From Halarcobacter sp. (GTDB lineage Bacteria > Campylobacterota > Campylobacteria > Campylobacterales > Arcobacteraceae), in contig OY781089.1 in NCBI GenBank assembly GCA_963676565.1, positions 1,248,001 to 1,312,000 of the forward strand: 64,000 nucleotides of DNA, in the 5' to 3' direction. Position 1 is the stretch's first letter. Each line of letters starts with the position of its first letter. The position numbers and the translations under genes were made by a program. This document shows positions 6,257-64,000 of this stretch, piece after piece. The notes under the pieces were generated by a model. The model saw nothing but the letters and a program-made list of their open reading frames with translations. It ran no database searches and was not told where the DNA came from.

Positions 6257-7474
6257 ATGGGGAAATCATATAAAAGAAGCCTTATTGCTGCATTTTTAAT
6301 AGTATCAACAGGTTCACAAGTTTTAGCTTCTGATTCAGTAGTAGAAGCTTTTACAAATGGAAAAGTGAAAGGTGAATTAAAATCATACTATTTTAATGAA
6401 GCTTATGATTCGGCAACATCATCAGATAATAATGTATGGGCGAATGGTATAAAATTAGGATATAAAACTGATTCATATAAAGGGATAAGTTTAGGAGCGA
6501 CATTTCAAGGAGCGGATGTTACATCTATAGATGATGATGCCAATAAACAGACAAAAACTATGAATGCTGGTGGAGCAGTTTTATCAGAAGCTTATGTAAA
6601 CTACAAATATAAAAATACACAGTTTAAAGGTGGTAGACAGTTTATCTCTTTACCTTTAATAAAAGGTTCTGGTTCAAGACTTATAAAAGAATCATTTGAG
6701 GGATATTTTTTATCTAACACAGATATACCTGATACACTTATCTCTTTAGGAAAAATCACTAAATATCAAACAAGAACAGATGCAGTTACATCAACAACTA
6801 ATGCCGCATCATTTACAAACTCAGATTCAAATACAGGTGATGTTGGGGAATTTAATAAAATTGGAACAAATGGAGCTATATCTTTATATTTAAAGAATAA
6901 GTCAATTGAAAACTTAACTATTCAAACTCACTATGTTGATTTTATTGATGAAGTAGCTGATTTATATATTGATGCTAAATATAATTTTGGTGGAGAGTTT
7001 AAACCATATATTGCAGCACAATACTATAACTCAAACTATGATAATAGTGCAACAAAAGATAGCTTTATGACAGGATATAAAGTGGGTGCAACATTTGCTG
7101 GTTATAATATACATGCTTCATATACTTCAACAGATGATGATGGAAATGTAAATAGAGGTATTGGTGAAGCTGCAACAGCATCATTTACATCTGCTACAGC
7201 AACTACAGGAAACTATACAGCAGGAACAGATACTTGGCAAGTAGGAGTTTCTAAAAAGTTTGGTGACTTATCAGCGGAAGTGAAGTACACAAGTAGTGAT
7301 GCTGAATTAAAAAAGAATGACTTAGACCAAATATATTTAGGGTTAAAATATAAATTCTCTGGTGAGCTTAAAAATCTTTCATTATCAACTGAATATACTA
7401 TTTATGACTATGGACAAGGTAATGAAGCAAAAGAAAAAAATGAATTAAGAGCAAAACTAATTTATAAATTCTAA
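6257..7474 (+). CDS. Outer-membrane porin (OprD/Campylobacterota porin-like)
   Basis: Signal peptide, AFTNGKVKGELKSYYF start, amphipathic beta strands, C-terminal YKF. Confidence 0.82.
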   Translation: MGKSYKRSLIAAFLIVSTGSQVLASDSVVEAFTNGKVKGELKSYYFNEAYDSATSSDNNVWANGIKLGYKTDSYKGISLGATFQGADVTSIDDDANKQTKTMNAGGAVLSEAYVNYKYKNTQFKGGRQFISLPLIKGSGSRLIKESFEGYFLSNTDIPDTLISLGKITKYQTRTDAVTSTTNAASFTNSDSNTGDVGEFNKIGTNGAISLYLKNKSIENLTIQTHYVDFIDEVADLYIDAKYNFGGEFKPYIAAQYYNSNYDNSATKDSFMTGYKVGATFAGYNIHASYTSTDDDGNVNRGIGEAATASFTSATATTGNYTAGTDTWQVGVSKKFGDLSAEVKYTSSDAELKKNDLDQIYLGLKYKFSGELKNLSLSTEYTIYDYGQGNEAKEKNELRAKLIYKF

Positions 7475-7515
7475 TGATTATCTTCTAAAATTAGAAATCA
7501 ATATGCGCGAACAAG

Positions 7516-7543
7516 AAAAAAAGGAGCTAAGACTCCTTTTTTT
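7516..7543 (+). terminator. Intrinsic terminator after porin
   Basis: AAAAAAAGGAG-ctaaga-CTCCTTTTTTT. Confidence 0.75.
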
Positions 7544-7558
7544 AATTTTATCTATACT

Positions 7559-7591
7559 TGCAAGATTTATGACAGAAAAATAAAGTACTAT
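7559..7591 (+). promoter_or_regulatory. Shared direct-repeat motif plus -10 box upstream of rraA-like gene
   Basis: TGCAAG-attta-TGACAG-N10-TACTAT. Confidence 0.65.
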
Positions 7592-7615
7592 TCGAAAAAA
7601 TTAAAAAGGATTAAC

Positions 7616-8101
7616 ATGAGACAATATAGAACAGCTGATCTTTGTGATGAAAATCAAGATAAAAAAATTCAAGTATTATCCCACAAATTCAAAAACTATG
7701 GTGGAAAAAAAAGATTTAAAGGAAGAGTAAAAACTATTAAAATTGAAAAAAGTAATTGGGCAGTAATTGATGTGCTAAAAAATGAACCAGGTAAAAATAA
7801 AGTTTTAGTTATTGATGTGGAAGAAGCTCCTTATGGTATTGTTGGAGATAAATTATCTACTCTTGCAGAAAGAAATCAATATGAAGCTATGATTATAAAT
7901 GGATTTGTTAGAGATACAATGGAAACAAAAAAGTTTAATATTGGACTTTTTGCACTAGGGACTTGTCCTTTAAGAAATTTTGATAAAACGCCATCACAAT
8001 TAGGTATTGATTTATACTTTGGAAATGTTTCTTTTAAAGAAGATGATTATATATATTGTGATGAAGATGGAATTATTGTTTCAAATGAAAAGCTTATGTA
8101 A
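7616..8101 (+). CDS. rraA: RraA family protein (RNase E regulator / HMG-aldolase-like)
   Basis: TADLCD, YGGKKRF.G, VLVID, VGD, GFVRD, DEDGI motifs. Confidence 0.88.
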   Translation: MRQYRTADLCDENQDKKIQVLSHKFKNYGGKKRFKGRVKTIKIEKSNWAVIDVLKNEPGKNKVLVIDVEEAPYGIVGDKLSTLAERNQYEAMIINGFVRDTMETKKFNIGLFALGTCPLRNFDKTPSQLGIDLYFGNVSFKEDDYIYCDEDGIIVSNEKLM

Positions 8102-8258
8102 GACGTGCTTTCTTCTTTGCACTTAGTCTTCTAAATCCCAAATTAAACCTTATTTAAATACAATACGCTTTTAATAAATTGTTGGCAAAAGTGTGGTTGT
8201 AGTCGTTACAGCTTAATTAATTGATTAGGGTAGTTATTACTTAAGGAAAAAATAGATT

Positions 8259-56741: not shown

Positions 56742-59702
56742 TTGAGAGAAGAAGTTCAAGAACTATTAAATGATAAAAAAACCTTACTTACAATCACTTA
56801 TTTTAAACTTCAAAAACTTTTAGAAAAAAAGTATGGGAACAATGCAGTTGTTCTTATGGAGATAGGAACATTTTTTGAAGTTTATGAAGTAAATAATGAT
56901 GAGGAACAAGTAGGAAAAGCAAAAGAGATTGCAGAACTTCTAAACATCCAGTTAACAAGAAAAAATAAATCTATTTTAGAAAACTCACAAGAAAATCCTA
57001 TTATGGCTGGAGTTCCAGCAATTTCATTTGAGAAACATTTAGCAAGAATAATTGCCGAACAAAAATATACAGTTGCAATTGTTAGACAAAAGGGACTTCC
57101 TCCAAATGTTAGTAGATATTTAGATACAGTTGTAAGTCCTGGTACAAACTTTGATTTTGTAGTTGACCAAGATGAAAACAATATCACTTCTTTAGTAATT
57201 GACCAAATAAGAGGTATCTATTTAGTTGGTTATAGTGCCATTGATGTAACAACAGGAAAGTGTTATTATAATGAAATACATGGTACTAGTGAAGATAAAT
57301 TTTATGCACTTGATGAAGTATTTAATTATATGAATATGCATAAAACCAATGAAGTAGTAATAAGCTTTGCAGATAAAAATATAAATCAAAAAGAGGTTAT
57401 TGATTACCTTGAATTAAAACTAAAAACTTTTCATATAGGAACTTTTAGACCAAAGATAAACTATCAAAATGAACTTTTTAAAAATGTATTTAGAATAGAG
57501 TCTTTATTAACAGCAATTGAACATCTTGATATGGAAAGGGTTCCCTTAAGTACAGAATCATTAGCTATTTTAATTGATTTTGTTATTGGACACGATTCAA
57601 ATATTATTCAAAAACTTTCATACCCTCAAAAACTTGATGTAAGTAGATATATCTATTTAGGAAATAATGCCTTAGAGCAATTAAATATAATAGAAACAAC
57701 CCACAATCCAAGTTTAATTAAACTGATTAATAACACTTCAACAGCTATGGGGAAAAGGCTATTAAAAGAGAGATTAACCCATCCTGTTAAAGACTCTAAA
57801 GAGATACTTAGACGATATGCCCTTTCAAAAGAGCTTTTTGATTTCCATACTCCAATTGAAAACGAGTTAGCAAATATTTATGATATTGAAAGATTAACAA
57901 GAAGAATAAAGTTAAATAGGCTACACCCTTTTGAGTTAAACTATTTATATGATTCTCTATTAAGTATTAAAGAAGTAGTTTCTTTTATGGAAAACTATAA
58001 GTTTTTAACTCCACCTTGTAGTAGTTCTGAATTACAACTTTTTATTCAATCTATTGATTCAACATTTGATTTAGCAATTAGTGGAAAATATATGCTAAAA
58101 GATGTTGAAGGAAATATGGTTTGTGAAGGGATTAATACCCAAATTGATGAACTAAATAAAGAAAATGAAGAGCTTTATACAAAACTTGAACTTCTTCAAA
58201 ATCATATATTAGGATTTTTAAAAACAAAAGATCCAAACTATGTTGGAATAAATAGATTAGATAAAGAGGGTTTCTTTCTAACTCTAACAAAGAATAGATT
58301 TAATCTAGTAAAAGAGGAGTTATTAAACTCACATATTATTATTGATGATGAATTACATTTATTTAAAGATTTTAATATAAAAATTCAAACAAACAATGTA
58401 AAGATTTTTTCTAAAATTAGTGAAGATGTTTCTGACAAATATGTTCATAATTTACGAAAAATAGTTGAACTAAACAAATTAGTATTTAAAGAAAAGATTT
58501 CAGAATTTGAGAAAAAGTTTGCAACACTTTTAGAAGAGTTAGTTCAATTTATTGCAGAAATTGATTTAACAGTTTCAAATATAAAAACAGCCAAAAAGTT
58601 CAACTACACTTGCCCAAAAATTGTAAAAACAAAAGATGAAGAGAACTTTTTAGAGCTTATAGACTTAAGACACCCAATTATTGAAGCAAATGAAGAACAA
58701 GGTATTTATGTACCAAATGATATTATCTTAGGTGAACTTAGCCTTGCTTCTAAAGAGTATAAAGATAATGTAATAGTAAAAAACTCAAATCCAATTAATA
58801 TGTTTAATAATAAGATGCATGGAGTTTTACTTTATGGTATTAACTCTTCAGGTAAATCATCTCTTATGAAAGCAATTGGTATCTCTGTAATTCTTGCACA
58901 AGCAGGTTTTTATGTGCCAGCAAAATCTATGAGATTTTCAATTTTTGATGCAGTTTATACTAGAATTAGTGGAGCAGATAATATTGCAAAAGGTTTATCT
59001 TCTTTTGCTGTTGAGATGTTAGAACTTAAAAATATTTTTAATAGAGCAACTAAAAACTCACTTGTATTAGGTGATGAAATCTCTCATAGTACTGAAACTA
59101 TGAGTGGTCTTTCTATTGTAGCTAGTGCTATATTGAAATTGGCAAAATTAGAATCAATTTTTGTATTTGCAACACACCTACATCAATTACCAGAAATTGA
59201 AGAGATTCAAAAGCTTAAGAATATAATAGCTCTTCATTTATCGGTTATGTATAAAGATGAAGAGGATAAATTAATCTTTGATAGAAAGTTATCATATGGG
59301 AGTGGTTCATCTATGTATGGTTTAGAATATGCGAAATCACTTCATATGGATAGAGAGTTTTTATCTGTTGCCAATGATATTAGAAAAAGACTCACTGATG
59401 ATTATAATCCACTTGAAAGATTGTCTCAGAGAAAGACCTCTAAATATAACAAAGATGTTTTTGCTGCATCATGTGTGATTTGTGGTAAAGCTTGTGATGA
59501 TGTACACCACATAAAAGAACAAGCAAGAGCAAACAAAGATGGCTTTATAGGTCATGTAAATGCAAACCATAAATACAATCTAATCCCACTTTGTAAAAAA
59601 CATCATAAGATGGTTCATGATGGAACAATAAATGTAAATGGTTTTGTTGCAACTTCGACTGGTCTTGAACTTCACTATACTATGGTAGATGAAGATAAAT
59701 AA
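56742..59702 (+). CDS. MutS-family protein with C-terminal HNH nuclease (MutS7-like)
   Basis: G.FFEVY mismatch domain, GINSSGKS Walker A, SSF.VEM, DE, ATHLH; C-terminal CVIC...HHI...NLIPLCKKHH. Confidence 0.88.
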   Translation: MREEVQELLNDKKTLLTITYFKLQKLLEKKYGNNAVVLMEIGTFFEVYEVNNDEEQVGKAKEIAELLNIQLTRKNKSILENSQENPIMAGVPAISFEKHLARIIAEQKYTVAIVRQKGLPPNVSRYLDTVVSPGTNFDFVVDQDENNITSLVIDQIRGIYLVGYSAIDVTTGKCYYNEIHGTSEDKFYALDEVFNYMNMHKTNEVVISFADKNINQKEVIDYLELKLKTFHIGTFRPKINYQNELFKNVFRIESLLTAIEHLDMERVPLSTESLAILIDFVIGHDSNIIQKLSYPQKLDVSRYIYLGNNALEQLNIIETTHNPSLIKLINNTSTAMGKRLLKERLTHPVKDSKEILRRYALSKELFDFHTPIENELANIYDIERLTRRIKLNRLHPFELNYLYDSLLSIKEVVSFMENYKFLTPPCSSSELQLFIQSIDSTFDLAISGKYMLKDVEGNMVCEGINTQIDELNKENEELYTKLELLQNHILGFLKTKDPNYVGINRLDKEGFFLTLTKNRFNLVKEELLNSHIIIDDELHLFKDFNIKIQTNNVKIFSKISEDVSDKYVHNLRKIVELNKLVFKEKISEFEKKFATLLEELVQFIAEIDLTVSNIKTAKKFNYTCPKIVKTKDEENFLELIDLRHPIIEANEEQGIYVPNDIILGELSLASKEYKDNVIVKNSNPINMFNNKMHGVLLYGINSSGKSSLMKAIGISVILAQAGFYVPAKSMRFSIFDAVYTRISGADNIAKGLSSFAVEMLELKNIFNRATKNSLVLGDEISHSTETMSGLSIVASAILKLAKLESIFVFATHLHQLPEIEEIQKLKNIIALHLSVMYKDEEDKLIFDRKLSYGSGSSMYGLEYAKSLHMDREFLSVANDIRKRLTDDYNPLERLSQRKTSKYNKDVFAASCVICGKACDDVHHIKEQARANKDGFIGHVNANHKYNLIPLCKKHHKMVHDGTINVNGFVATSTGLELHYTMVDEDK

Positions 59703-59866: not shown

Positions 59867-62020
59867 ATGAGAACTTGTAAATATTTTCAAGCTAAAGGGA
59901 TTGACTATAAAGGTCAATTACAAAAAATTCCTAAAGCTAGTGTAAAACTTCAACCTTTGTATGAGGCTTTAACAAATTCAATTGAAGCAATAAAACTTTT
60001 AAAAGAAAAAAATGATGAAGCAAAAATCATTTTAAGTTTTTTCTTTATTAATAATTTATTTGGAGATGATGATTCTCTTGAATTATCAAAAATAGAACTT
60101 TTAGATTATGGAGTTGGATTTAATGATAAAGAGTTTGAAAGATTTACACAACTACATGATAATACAAAAGGATTTCATAATCAAGGTTCAGGACGTATTC
60201 AATATATGCACTTTTTTGATGAAACAAAATTTGAAAGTGTATATCAAGATGATAGTTCAGAAACAGGCTTTTTAAAAAGAATCTTTTGGTTATCAAAAAA
60301 TGATACTTTTTTAATCAATAAAGCTATAGTTTGTTTTGATGATCCAATTGCTGAACAATCTAAAGAATCCTTTACAAAGATTACATTTAAAAAATTTTTA
60401 GAGGAAGAGGATGCAAAATACTATAGTTCATTTTCTGCTGAAGAGTTAAAAGAAAAACTAATAGAACACTATTTATACTATTTTTGTGAGAATAGAAAGA
60501 ATTTACCAAAAATAGAGATTAAAACCTTTGTAGATGAAAAAATAAAAGAGTCTGCTGAAATAACACTAGATGATATTCCTTCCGAAGATAAAAGTGATAA
60601 TATTGAAATAAACTATAAAAAGCTTACAAGTGACAAAAAATTAATTACTCTAGAAGATGAAACTGAGACTTTTCATATTAAAGCATTTAAACTAAATAAA
60701 GAAGTCCTGCCAAGTAATGATTTGAAACTAACAAGCAAAAAAGAAATTGTTAGAGGTAAACTTGCCAAAAAATTTGAATTAAATGTTTTAAAACCTACTG
60801 ACACAATTGATGACAACAGATATTTGTTTTTAGTTTCAAGTTCTTATATAGATAAAAGAGACTCTGACAACAGAGGTGACCTTAAACTTTATACAGATGA
60901 AGAATTTAAAGAGAACACTTCATTATTTATTGAAGATAAAATCATTTCCTTAAATGATATTCAATCAAATATTAACAATCATGTTTTAACACTTTATTCA
61001 GAAATACTAGAAAAAAAGAATGAACATAATACAGATATAGCTAAGTTACAAGAGATGTTTTTAATTGATGAGGATAATATTAAAAGTGTAAATATCAATG
61101 TTCAAGATACTGATGAGGAAATATTAAAAAAAGTATATAAACATAATGCAAAAAGAGCTGCTGAAAATGATGCCAAGCTAAAAGAGGAAATTGAAAAAAT
61201 TAATAGTGAATTAGATGAAATGAATCCATCAGATAATACTTATAGGGATGATTTAAGTAAGAAAGTCACTTTATTAGTTAAGAAGATACCTTTACAAAAT
61301 AAAAATGAACTTGCACATACTGTAGCTAAAAGAAAACTTGTACTAGATTTATTTGATAAGATTCTTGATAAGGAACTTAGTATTCAACAAGGTGATACAA
61401 GGAATATAGATGAAGAGCTTTTACACAACCTAATATTTAAGCAGTCATCAACTAATCCTGAAGAAAGTGACCTTTGGTTGGTTAATGAAGATTTTATATA
61501 CTTTAAGGGTACCTCTGAAAAGAAATTGAGTGATATTACAATTGATGGTGAAACAATTTTAAAGGATTATGATAGTTTAACTAAAGAGCAAAAAGACTTT
61601 AGAAATTCTTTAGAAGAAAATAGATATTCAAAAAAACCTGATATATTACTTTTCCCTGATGAAGGTAAATGTATTATTTTAGAGTTTAAAAATCCAAAAG
61701 TTAATATTTCTTCCCATTTACAGCAAATTCAAAACTATGCAACTTTGATATGGAATTTTTCAAAAGATAAATTTCAATTCAATACTTTCTATGGCTATTA
61801 CATTGGCGAGAAGATAAATAATTTAGATGTGAGAAGTAAATATCCAAGCTTTGTAGAGTCTTATCATTTTGATTATTTATTTAGACCAAGTGAAGTTGTT
61901 GCAGGGTTCTTTGGTAAAAGAGATGCAAATATCTATACTGAAGTTATAAAATACTCTACACTTTTAAAAAGAGCAAAACGAAGAAATGAACTTTTCATTG
62001 AAAAGTTAGGGATTAAATAA
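59867..62020 (+). CDS. GHKL-type ATPase fused to C-terminal PD-(D/E)xK nuclease-like domain
   Basis: N-box YEALTNSIEA, G1 DYGVGF, G2 QGSGR; C-terminal KPDILLF...IILEFK...QIQNYA. Confidence 0.75.
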   Translation: MRTCKYFQAKGIDYKGQLQKIPKASVKLQPLYEALTNSIEAIKLLKEKNDEAKIILSFFFINNLFGDDDSLELSKIELLDYGVGFNDKEFERFTQLHDNTKGFHNQGSGRIQYMHFFDETKFESVYQDDSSETGFLKRIFWLSKNDTFLINKAIVCFDDPIAEQSKESFTKITFKKFLEEEDAKYYSSFSAEELKEKLIEHYLYYFCENRKNLPKIEIKTFVDEKIKESAEITLDDIPSEDKSDNIEINYKKLTSDKKLITLEDETETFHIKAFKLNKEVLPSNDLKLTSKKEIVRGKLAKKFELNVLKPTDTIDDNRYLFLVSSSYIDKRDSDNRGDLKLYTDEEFKENTSLFIEDKIISLNDIQSNINNHVLTLYSEILEKKNEHNTDIAKLQEMFLIDEDNIKSVNINVQDTDEEILKKVYKHNAKRAAENDAKLKEEIEKINSELDEMNPSDNTYRDDLSKKVTLLVKKIPLQNKNELAHTVAKRKLVLDLFDKILDKELSIQQGDTRNIDEELLHNLIFKQSSTNPEESDLWLVNEDFIYFKGTSEKKLSDITIDGETILKDYDSLTKEQKDFRNSLEENRYSKKPDILLFPDEGKCIILEFKNPKVNISSHLQQIQNYATLIWNFSKDKFQFNTFYGYYIGEKINNLDVRSKYPSFVESYHFDYLFRPSEVVAGFFGKRDANIYTEVIKYSTLLKRAKRRNELFIEKLGIK

Positions 62021-62038
62021 AAAAGGAATGGAGATATA

Positions 62039-64000
62039 ATGTATTTAGAATCATTACAAGAAAAAGATTTATATCTTGCCTATAAAAAGACAAAATTTGA
62101 ATTATTTAATGATAATATATCTACTTCTACCGTTCAACTATTTGAATATGAAGAGAATTTAGAAGATAATATTGATAAATTATATAAGAACATAAAAGAA
62201 GAAGGATTGTTTAATATTTGTTCTTATAGTTATTATGAAATACCTAAATCATATAATGAGAAGCAATCAGAAATTCAAGATGAAGTCCATTTCTTTTCAA
62301 GTTCTCTTATTCACCATAAGGGAAATAAACAAAAAAACATAGAACTAAAATTTAGAAAAATAATTGATGCTAATATTAATTTTCATATAATATCTACATT
62401 ATGGATAGATAAAATAGGACAATACATAGATGAAAAGTTGTCTCATGATGTTTATGGTTCACGGTTAGTGAGAATTAAACCTGTAGATATTAGTTCCTGC
62501 GAATATGATTTGACAATGCAAAGTTATAATTTAGAAAGCCCAAGAATTTTTGAACCATATCAATACAAATATCAAAAATGGAGAAATAATAGTTTTAATA
62601 CAATTAGAGAATTACATAAGTCTTCTTCTGTAATTGCAGTTACTATGGATATAACATCTTTTTATCACCAGATTGATATTGAGGAGTTTATTTCAAAAGA
62701 GTTTTATGACAATTTTGGATTAAGTGATTTATTTGAAGATAATGATGAATTAAAAATTTTTCATGAAGATTTTATTGCATTATTAAAAAAATGGAATAGT
62801 TCAATAAATTCAGAGGATGGACTTCCTATTGGTATTTCAGCTTCTCCTATATTAGCAAATGCTGTAATGAAAGAATTTGATAACAATATTGAAAATAAGT
62901 TAAAACCCACTTATTATGGAAGATATGTTGATGACATTTTATTAGTCTTTCCTGATTCAGGTAACATCCGAAATGGTGAAGATGTTATAAGATATTTAAT
63001 ATCAAAAGACATAGTAAAAAGAGATATAAAAAAAGATCCTAATAGTATCTTTTATAAAAAGTTCACTTTCAAAAAAAATAAACAAAAGATTTTTTATTTA
63101 GATAGAAACTCTGATTTAAGTATTATAGATGCAATTGAAAGTGAAATTAATTCTATATCAAGTGAATGGCGATTTATGCCTGATTTAGTTGATGACAACT
63201 CAACTTTTCTACAGAAAATTATAGGATTTTATGCTGATGGGAATGAGTTTAATGATGCTTTGAGAAAAGTTGATTCTACCACTATTAAAAAGTTGGGATT
63301 GTCTTTATTAATTGGACATGCACATTCTTTAAATGAATATATATCTCCATCAGAATGGAAAAATAAAAGACATGAAATATATGATTTAATAGAAAACCAT
63401 ATATTTATTCCAAGTAATTTTTTTAATAATTATATGTTTATAAGTAGAATCTTTAAACTAATGATTCATAGTGGAGATGGAGAAAGGGCTTATTGCTTTT
63501 TAGAAAAGACTATATCTATTATTGATTCATTTAGAGAAATCTCTTCTAAAAATTGTATAGCTTCAAATGGTAAAGATGTTGAGTTTTATAGATTTGAAAA
63601 ATATCATTATTCTCTACTGCAACAAGTGTTTCTAGAAACTTGTAATATATTGTCTAATATCAAAAAAAGGCATCTTTTAAAGATAATTAATACTTTATTT
63701 AATCAAGAAGTCTTTTGCGATTATTCTAATGTACTGATAACTTTCTATAATAGGGTTATGACTAAAGAAGTTGATAAAGAAGGTTTAATAAGTTTTGATA
63801 ATTTACATATACCTGCAACTGAAATAAATGAAGACGTAATAAAAGAAATAAATGCCCATTTATTTTTTAGGGATTTAGCTTTTAACTCTTTTTCAAGTTC
63901 TTGTACAGAATATGTTCTTACAAAAAACAATTATAATTTACTAAAAATGAATAGAAAGTTTTTATATAATAGATATAAAGACAGTAACCTTGAAATTAAA
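62039..64000 (+). CDS. Large reverse transcriptase (UG/DRT-type), 3' end beyond window
   Basis: Not in ORF track. 654 codons open to window end; MDITSFY (D204), GLPIGISASPILAN (G261), YYGRYVDDILLV (Y296-D299); GGAG RBS. Confidence 0.9.
   Translation, partial: MYLESLQEKDLYLAYKKTKFELFNDNISTSTVQLFEYEENLEDNIDKLYKNIKEEGLFNICSYSYYEIPKSYNEKQSEIQDEVHFFSSSLIHHKGNKQKNIELKFRKIIDANINFHIISTLWIDKIGQYIDEKLSHDVYGSRLVRIKPVDISSCEYDLTMQSYNLESPRIFEPYQYKYQKWRNNSFNTIRELHKSSSVIAVTMDITSFYHQIDIEEFISKEFYDNFGLSDLFEDNDELKIFHEDFIALLKKWNSSINSEDGLPIGISASPILANAVMKEFDNNIENKLKPTYYGRYVDDILLVFPDSGNIRNGEDVIRYLISKDIVKRDIKKDPNSIFYKKFTFKKNKQKIFYLDRNSDLSIIDAIESEINSISSEWRFMPDLVDDNSTFLQKIIGFYADGNEFNDALRKVDSTTIKKLGLSLLIGHAHSLNEYISPSEWKNKRHEIYDLIENHIFIPSNFFNNYMFISRIFKLMIHSGDGERAYCFLEKTISIIDSFREISSKNCIASNGKDVEFYRFEKYHYSLLQQVFLETCNILSNIKKRHLLKIINTLFNQEVFCDYSNVLITFYNRVMTKEVDKEGLISFDNLHIPATEINEDVIKEINAHLFFRDLAFNSFSSSCTEYVLTKNNYNLLKMNRKFLYNRYKDSNLEIK

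Follow-up and report, generated by a model that had tools for sequence, protein, structure and literature searches.

A divergent UG5-large reverse transcriptase-nitrilase in a two-gene island behind mutS-HNH of Halarcobacter sp.

What kind of reverse transcriptase (RT) is encoded at the right-hand end of the stretch of Halarcobacter sp. DNA analysed here, and does it act alone or together with the gene just in front of it? The stretch, hereafter called the window, is 64,000 nucleotides (nt) long and covers positions 1,248,001 to 1,312,000 of contig OY781089.1 in assembly GCA_963676565.1 (G000:C1:1248001-1312000), being part of a single 3.34-Mb contig. From the letters alone, a preliminary description had reported an open frame with RT motifs that runs off the window end, and had likened its product to the long UG RTs fused to a nitrilase. 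We have followed this frame further in an extended locus, L003 (G000:C1:1305001-1322000), in which a position equals the window position minus 57000. Overall, it is highly probable that the product of this intact gene is a UG5-large defence enzyme in a single polypeptide, with a mechanism inferred from its homologues, and that the gene belongs to a horizontally acquired island of two genes.

The frame starts with an ATG at 62039 on the forward strand and is free of stop codons up to the window end at 64000, i.e., over 654 codons, as had been described. It was missed by the open reading frame (ORF) track because it runs off the window end, and it appears only in listings that admit open-ended ORFs. 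An ORF ending soon past 64000 had been named as an outcome that would speak against a fused accessory domain; actually, the contig extension adds 383 further codons. The complete ORF (L003 5039-8152; window 62039 to extrapolated 65152) encodes 1037 amino acids (aa), so that 62039..64000 holds the first 654 of 1037 codons and the rest of the gene lies outside the window. All the motifs quoted in the preliminary description are found at their residues, far beyond chance. They include the N-terminal segment LYLAYKKTK (residues 11-19), FHIISTLWI...YGSRL, FEPYQYKYQKWR (residues 171-182), the RT motif A aspartate D204 in TMDIT (codon 62648..62650), GLPIGISASPILAN in the RT motif B region (residues 261-274, 62819..62860, with P263, G265 and N274 invariant), the RT catalytic motif C Y296-V-D-D299 (62924..62935), and, after YVDD, SSEWRFMP (residues 374-381) and LRKVD (residues 408-412), all on the forward strand. 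Both D204 and Y296-V-D-D299 are invariant in two alignments, of 16 and 62 relatives (D204: 16/16 and 62/62). More than 350 residues had been noted beyond YVDD, and 355 are counted inside the window.

For the family assignment, the protein was compared with Pfam and PADLOC models. Pfam RVT_1 is matched at residues 168-306, with E 1.1e-13 for the in-window part and 2.4e-13 for the full protein. Against the PADLOC model RT_UG5-nitrilase (PDLC03780), the in-window part alone gives E 3.7e-122 and the full protein E 1.3e-243 and 809.5 bits, with residues 4-1034 of the latter aligned on model positions 19-904 of 907. Other PADLOC RT models give 122 bits (UG5_small) and 62 bits (UG36). An identity as DRT1/UG1 was considered and rejected: the Drt1a model is not the best one (102.9 bits, mainly across the nitrilase part), the length is 1037 aa against ~1200-1300, and the DRT1 residue S402 is unmatched. 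Thus, of the families UG1, UG5 and UG6 that had been offered for a long, DRT1-like UG RT with a nitrilase, UG5 in its large form stands, and UG1 and UG6 do not. Among 8000 candidates scored, 252 relatives were found at E ≤1e-10, and nearly all of the 120 relatives listed are ~1000 aa long. A search of viral contigs with UG5-large returned a few full-length relatives, at ~30% identity.

Among plasmids, tblastn found positions 109356-112331 of pSymA from Sinorhizobium meliloti, with 29.6% identity at a coverage of 93% (E 1e-87). The DRT11 locus of S. meliloti is given as 109,344-112,361 (PMC13436386; here and below, statements on published systems refer to the accessible parts of the cited papers), and since the coordinates agree, this match is the validated DRT11 locus. 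UG5-large belongs to the class 3 UG/Abi RTs and has been named DRT11 (PMC13436386) and DRT5L (PMC13275509). Judged from its sequence, the frame is a real and intact gene, and a divergent member of UG5-large (DRT11/DRT5L).

The nitrilase that had been predicted C-terminally, beyond 64000, is present. The domain spans about residues 735-1037 (L003 ~7241-8152, forward strand), entirely outside the window, and the model for RT-associated nitrilases (RTasNitrilase) matches residues 789-1021 with E 1e-46. An AlphaFold2 model was built from the 62 relatives, with a predicted local distance difference test (pLDDT) of 84.4 and a predicted template modelling score (pTM) of 0.87. A Foldseek comparison places the C-terminal domain of this model on Nit2, D-carbamoylases, amidases and cyanide dihydratase, with E from 6e-9 to 1e-7; the best value is 5.7e-9, and the target TM-scores are 0.55-0.66. 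The nitrilase superfamily uses a catalytic tetrad. In our protein E800, K864, E871 and C907 are invariant in 62/62 aligned relatives, as are D204 and Y296-V-D-D299, and the Glu-Lys-Glu-Cys order together with the K864-E871 spacing fits such a tetrad at the level of sequence. The concept of the nitrilase catalytic tetrad is also used in the DRT1 paper (PMC13275509), according to which mutation of DRT1 C1116 abolishes defence; C907 is aligned with this cysteine, and Y296-D299 is aligned with the YVDD/RYVDD region of DRT1. At the C-terminal tail FKPVPTGF, where K1014, P1015 and P1017 are invariant among the 62 relatives, we see what may be a counterpart of the essential C-terminal lid of DRT1. 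Overall, the protein consists of an N-terminal RT, a helical middle region and a C-terminal nitrilase-superfamily domain with a complete catalytic set.

We have compared this enzyme with three known RT-nitrilases that stand closest to it. Like DRT11 (S. meliloti RMO17 pSymA, WP_040120558.1; PMC13436386), it is a ~1000-aa RT(YVDD)-connector-nitrilase with K-C-E, the homology is full-length, and both match the same PADLOC model; in both, a transmembrane partner is absent and a non-coding RNA (ncRNA) is not detectable. On the other hand, our enzyme differs from DRT11 in its AT-rich host (24-33% G+C across 1-kb windows), in its closest named homologues, which among the matches listed come from Aliarcobacter, Sulfurimonas and Sulfuricurvum, and in its location, which is chromosomal at the 3' end of mutS-HNH whereas DRT11 lies in a megaplasmid defence region. 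Unlike DRT11, it is also preceded by a paraMORC3-type gene. With DRT1/UG1 (PDB 9YFD; PMC13275509) it shares the class 3 RT-nitrilase architecture with an aligned catalytic Cys, a conserved tail after the nitrilase and a flexible loop after the palm, but DRT1 has ~1229 aa instead of 1037 and belongs to a different PADLOC family, and its S402 and C-terminal lid residues have no demonstrable equivalents in ours. The UG5-large system of E. coli, named 'RT-nitrilase + TM' and found in a P2/P4 hotspot (cited in PMC9226505, PMC13436386), is again a UG5 RT-nitrilase fusion like ours.

In E. coli, the RT-nitrilase is accompanied downstream by a transmembrane protein, which the system is reported to need (Mestre et al. 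2022, PMC9226505). In our island there is no transmembrane partner, and no ORF lies in the 50 nt between the RT stop codon and the right repeat. By a crude hydropathy prediction, a same-strand downstream ORF with at least 2 transmembrane segments occurs in 2 of 63 UG5-large loci, and Mestre et al. give such a partner for 31 of 299 UG5-large members (PMC9226505). The partner should be regarded as optional for UG5-large rather than defining, and DRT11 likewise does without it. A different kind of downstream ORF was observed in several distant UG5-large loci, where an ORF of ~580-600 aa follows the RT-nitrilase within 12-51 nt (L059 3514-5304 and L087 9000-10769, with ORFs of similar size in L078, L079, L082, L086 and L095). 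As the ORFs of L059 and L087 match PglX, the BREX methyltransferase, in its C-terminal half (E ~1e-200), UG5-large appears to be embedded in or beside BREX loci there.

How such an enzyme might work can be sketched from its homologues. Template-independent, protein-primed DNA synthesis and abortive infection are known for DRT1, DRT5S and DRT5L (PMC13275509) and for DRT11 (PMC13436386), and for the DRT11 locus an Abi-like phage protection was demonstrated by experiment, with both domains required (PMC13436386). For DRT1, the product is covalently linked to the protein, the adduct favours nitrilase-mediated tetramers and dormant filaments, and activation requires a phage helicase, with abortive infection as the outcome (PMC13275509). 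Because of this behaviour of DRT1 and DRT5L, we propose the same scheme for the Halarcobacter enzyme. The RT would work without an RNA template and use one of its own side chains as the primer; the product would be a short, semi-random single-stranded DNA that remains covalently bound to the protein. The attached DNA would then promote oligomerisation via the nitrilase domains and keep the nitrilase dormant, until a phage replication factor frees it to attack an essential metabolite, by which the infection would be aborted. By analogy, the most likely mode of action is abortive infection by a toxic nitrilase, which would be gated by DNA made on a protein primer and without a template.

As a candidate for the priming site, which is a new proposal, we point to S374/S375 in S374-S375-E376-W377 (63158..63169, forward strand). 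Among the 62 relatives, S375 and E376 are invariant and S374 is conserved in at least 90%, and pLDDT falls below 50 at residues 375-377 and 397-414 of the model. The priming serine of DRT1, S402, lies inside an unresolved loop at 382-478 (PMC13275509); since the model cannot place the SSEW stretch, the latter parallels the loop that carries S402. In the alignment itself, S402 falls on R378, within the low-confidence stretch.

Some points weigh against the explanation given so far. The full protein does not match Pfam CN_hydrolase at E ≤1, although the scan for this domain, which had been suggested as a check, returns a false negative here because the Pfam model misses the domain. The validated DRT11 is only 29.6% identical, and identity to DRT1 is detectable just in patches; activity, priming and phage protection are attributed to our enzyme by analogy. 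In addition, a transmembrane partner is needed in E. coli and none is present in our island, so that the gene may not suffice on its own. Finally, S402 of DRT1 has no conserved counterpart among the other class 3 enzymes (PMC13275509), and the case for S374/S375 is therefore made by their invariance and the flexible loop only.

The surroundings of the gene indicate how it has arrived. Upstream lies a core gene for a MutS that ends in an HNH domain (mutS-HNH, 986 aa, 56742..59702, forward strand), presumably resembling the 'MutS7' type of epsilonproteobacteria, octocoral mitochondria and giant viruses. It is present in 24/24 other genomes of the genus, with 85-98% identity in the 23 that show a full or near-full match, and in 9/16 other genera sampled in the order. 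The RT-nitrilase, on the other hand, has no full-length match in these 24 genomes (weak partial matches of at most 30 bits in 7), and the 717-aa gene between mutS-HNH and the RT has no real match there either, one 18-bit match only. The intact mutS-HNH ends in 111 nt (59591..59701) that form the left copy of a direct repeat, whose right copy, 92% identical and on the same strand, begins 50 nt past the RT-nitrilase stop (L003 8203-8313; extrapolated window 65203-65313). The right copy runs on into sequence that is found 3' of mutS in the closest relative, G014, which represents the empty site: there mutS abuts a gene for a major facilitator superfamily (MFS) transporter, with nothing between. 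Since the right repeat continues as the post-mutS sequence of G014, where nothing intervenes, the two genes make up a 5.5-kb insertion. In the explanation that we prefer, the RT-nitrilase was acquired by horizontal transfer, in a 5.5-kb two-gene island.

The same site has received other cargos. In G010 it holds a 587-aa pentapeptide-repeat protein with a 208-nt duplication (L024 4142-6426), and in G011 a 361-aa protein with a 299-nt duplication (L025 3651-5657). Of the two copies in G010, the displaced one on the right resembles the G014 sequence, and the one on the left, which is functional, looks foreign. None of the three cargos, in this genome, G010 and G011, has a recombinase gene. With repeat-flanked, differing cargos in 3/25 genomes of the genus, the 3' end of mutS-HNH looks like an insertion hotspot. 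We speculate that a circular intermediate recombines homologously via the 3' segment of mutS, which would account for the variable repeat lengths. Two further observations concern the borders. In two other sequencing runs, X3 and X4, the ATG of the 717-aa gene (window 59867) is precisely the point where similarity to the island sets in, and as the 164 nt from the mutS stop to this ATG are unshared, the cassette elsewhere has its left boundary at the start codon or immediately in front of it. A 130-aa rhodanese-domain gene (L003 8344-8790; extrapolated window 65344-65790) separates the right repeat from the MFS gene; it represents a second, separate indel at the junction because G014 has no counterpart.

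The other gene of the island (59867..62020, forward strand) encodes 717 aa and ends 18 nt upstream of the RT ATG. The spacer (62021..62038, forward strand), from its stop codon to the RT ATG, holds AAGGAATGGAG, with a Shine-Dalgarno-like GGAG 6-9 nt before the ATG. The protein comprises an N-terminal GHKL ATPase, an S5-like middle domain, a helical linker and a C-terminal PD-(D/E)xK nuclease. In 15 aligned homologues the GHKL motifs E33, N37, D80-x-G82-x-G84 and G107-S-G-R110 are kept, and so is the nuclease motif D592...E606-x-K608; Pfam HSDR_N is weakly matched, and hydropathy predicts no transmembrane segment. Its structural model (pLDDT 78) finds the ATPase-plus-transducer modules of SMCHD1, Hsp90, MutL-type proteins and topoisomerases (Foldseek E ~1e-10 to 1e-8), with E ~1e-10 to 1e-9 for the N-terminal domains of the first three. 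From sequence and model, this neighbour appears to be of the paraMORC3 type, as judged by comparison with the architecture published for that family (PMC2292703). A GHKL-nuclease of the Shedu type, VcSduA, protects against phages (PMC12137116). The neighbour shares with paraMORC3 and VcSduA the GHKL ATPase, the middle domain and the restriction-endonuclease-fold nuclease with D...ExK, as well as a sporadic spread over Proteobacteria-like and Bacteroidota lineages. It is unlike Shedu in having no Pfam DUF4263, and PADLOC gives only a weak Cas4 match, for which reason membership in Tiamat is rejected too. In the viral contigs the 717-aa family has no relative. A homologue of this neighbour, ~50% identical, was observed in another locus (L101, G425:C55, 7800-9935), between hsdS and hsdR of a type I restriction-modification (R-M) operon that also contains HepT-like, Bro-N and Fic genes.

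We then have to ask whether the two genes of the island form one system. The RT-nitrilase and the paraMORC3-type ATPase-nuclease could constitute a single two-gene defence system in this clade, a reading we consider possible though doubtful, in which the ATPase-nuclease would replace the transmembrane partner, e.g., as a sensor or as a second effector on the protein-linked DNA. Both genes are read from one strand, and the 18 nt that separate them include a ribosome-binding site. In the independent run X3, from another study and under another organism label, a 6692-nt contig spans the junction (61157-64000, ~94.5% identity), and a second contig covers window 59867-61159. Moreover, four close RT relatives (58-63% identity) match a 717-type homologue in the nt length of the longest contig and in the source databases, the longest contigs common to the four pairs being 10697, 33089, 7407 and 5621 nt, and on the last of these the two genes would occupy 5331 nt. 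On these four contigs, however, adjacency is read from the matching contig sizes and sources and not directly seen. All five RTs read as paired, ours included, fall in one 18-member clade (SH-aLRT 95), and the pairing persists while the partner changes: the RTs P0007 and P0014 are 85% identical and their partners P0125 and P0134 59%, which suggests, as far as sequences tell, an exchange of partners within a conserved two-gene arrangement.

Across the wider family the picture is different. In 70 genome loci, no homologue of the neighbour stands beside UG5-large, the sole match being 58 aa long with E 0.003, and the neighbour is absent in L028. A scan of metagenomes gave 4 other loci, with upstream sequence in L105 only; the RT of L105, which is 60% identical to ours, 99.9% identical to P0018 and a member of the same clade, has no such neighbour in 5 kb upstream and adjoins cobalt-transport genes. 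Conversely, a 717-type gene occurs in 2/400 other genomes drawn from the Campylobacterota, in one case within a type I R-M operon and in neither with an adjacent RT. Nuclease-bearing paraMORC3 proteins are described as often being encoded by stand-alone genes (Iyer, Abhiman & Aravind 2008, PMC2292703), the accessible parts of the paraMORC3 and VcSduA descriptions (PMC2292703, PMC12137116) do not mention adjacency to an RT-nitrilase, and DRT11 functions as a single gene (PMC13436386). The two genes also show no co-divergence (r = -0.27, 10 pairs). The pairing thus seems to recur among the closest relatives and not across the wider UG5-large family. Our reading of the island is that two defences, each of a single gene, frequently move in company, and a functional coupling between them is rather doubtful. 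In the strongest form of the coupled reading, which is unlikely, UG5-large in a clade of Campylobacterota-like hosts gained an obligate paraMORC3-type partner in place of the transmembrane protein and moves as a cassette at the mutS-HNH 3' end by recombination; an ATP-driven DNA clamp-nuclease would then read, or be regulated by, the protein-linked random DNA of the RT.

Readings that set the defence role of the RT aside fare worse. That it is a classical retroelement, i.e., a retron, a group II intron or a diversity-generating retroelement (DGR), had been denied by the preliminary description, and we can practically dismiss it. The similarity to such RTs is generic, with 54.7 bits for retron St85 (NF038233), 32.8 bits for the group II intron RT (TIGR04416) and only 27.7 bits for the top PADLOC retron model (Ec107-like); the curated cut-offs of 235 (NF038233) and 300 (TIGR04416) bits are far above these scores, and the 809.5 bits of UG5-nitrilase show that the core does not group with those RTs. 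The C-terminus is a nitrilase, with no maturase or endonuclease domain. Over 7 kb (L003 2000-9000), Rfam gives one match only at E ≤1, which is to a eukaryotic snoRNA model and stays below threshold (E 0.13); no retron or group II intron RNA family appears, and the only long direct repeat there is the mutS 3' end, with no pair of template and variable repeats. The 164-nt spacer before the first gene of the island folds no better than its shuffles (z 0.54). It is because of the missing repeat pair, the missing Rfam family and a spacer that folds like its shuffles that the retroelement readings fail. Counts of promoter-like sites (53 against 48 expected) and terminator-like sites (1 against 0.9 expected) stayed close to expectation and are uninformative. 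It is very unlikely, too, that the gene is an inactive relic, or that it has taken on a housekeeping function beside mutS instead of one in defence. Housekeeping genes do flank it, and it stands directly behind a DNA-repair gene, but its 1037-codon frame is intact with all the catalytic residues conserved, it was not found in 24 congeners which all retain mutS-HNH, the site is empty in G014, the closest relative, and direct repeats mark the insertion. The intact, horizontally acquired UG5-large defence enzyme remains the explanation that we prefer.

Anti-phage defence by this family has already been validated, and its chemistry was clarified in 2026; what the gene itself contributes is therefore no more than one divergent member, from an AT-rich lineage that has been little sampled. 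While the UG5-large family and its mechanism are already known, the adjacency to paraMORC3 and the mutS-HNH insertion with 111-nt repeats are unreported in the searchable literature; neither was found in print, the supplementary cluster tables of PMC9226505 being outside this coverage. If the adjacency of the GHKL ATPase-nuclease is functional, it would tie a DNA clamp of the MutL/MORC kind to protein-primed DNA synthesis, and it could help to find out what is sensed by the nitrilase systems. As for the genus, accessory genes seem to use the 3' end of mutS-HNH as a compact hotspot that has no recombinase of its own, with different cargos in three species.

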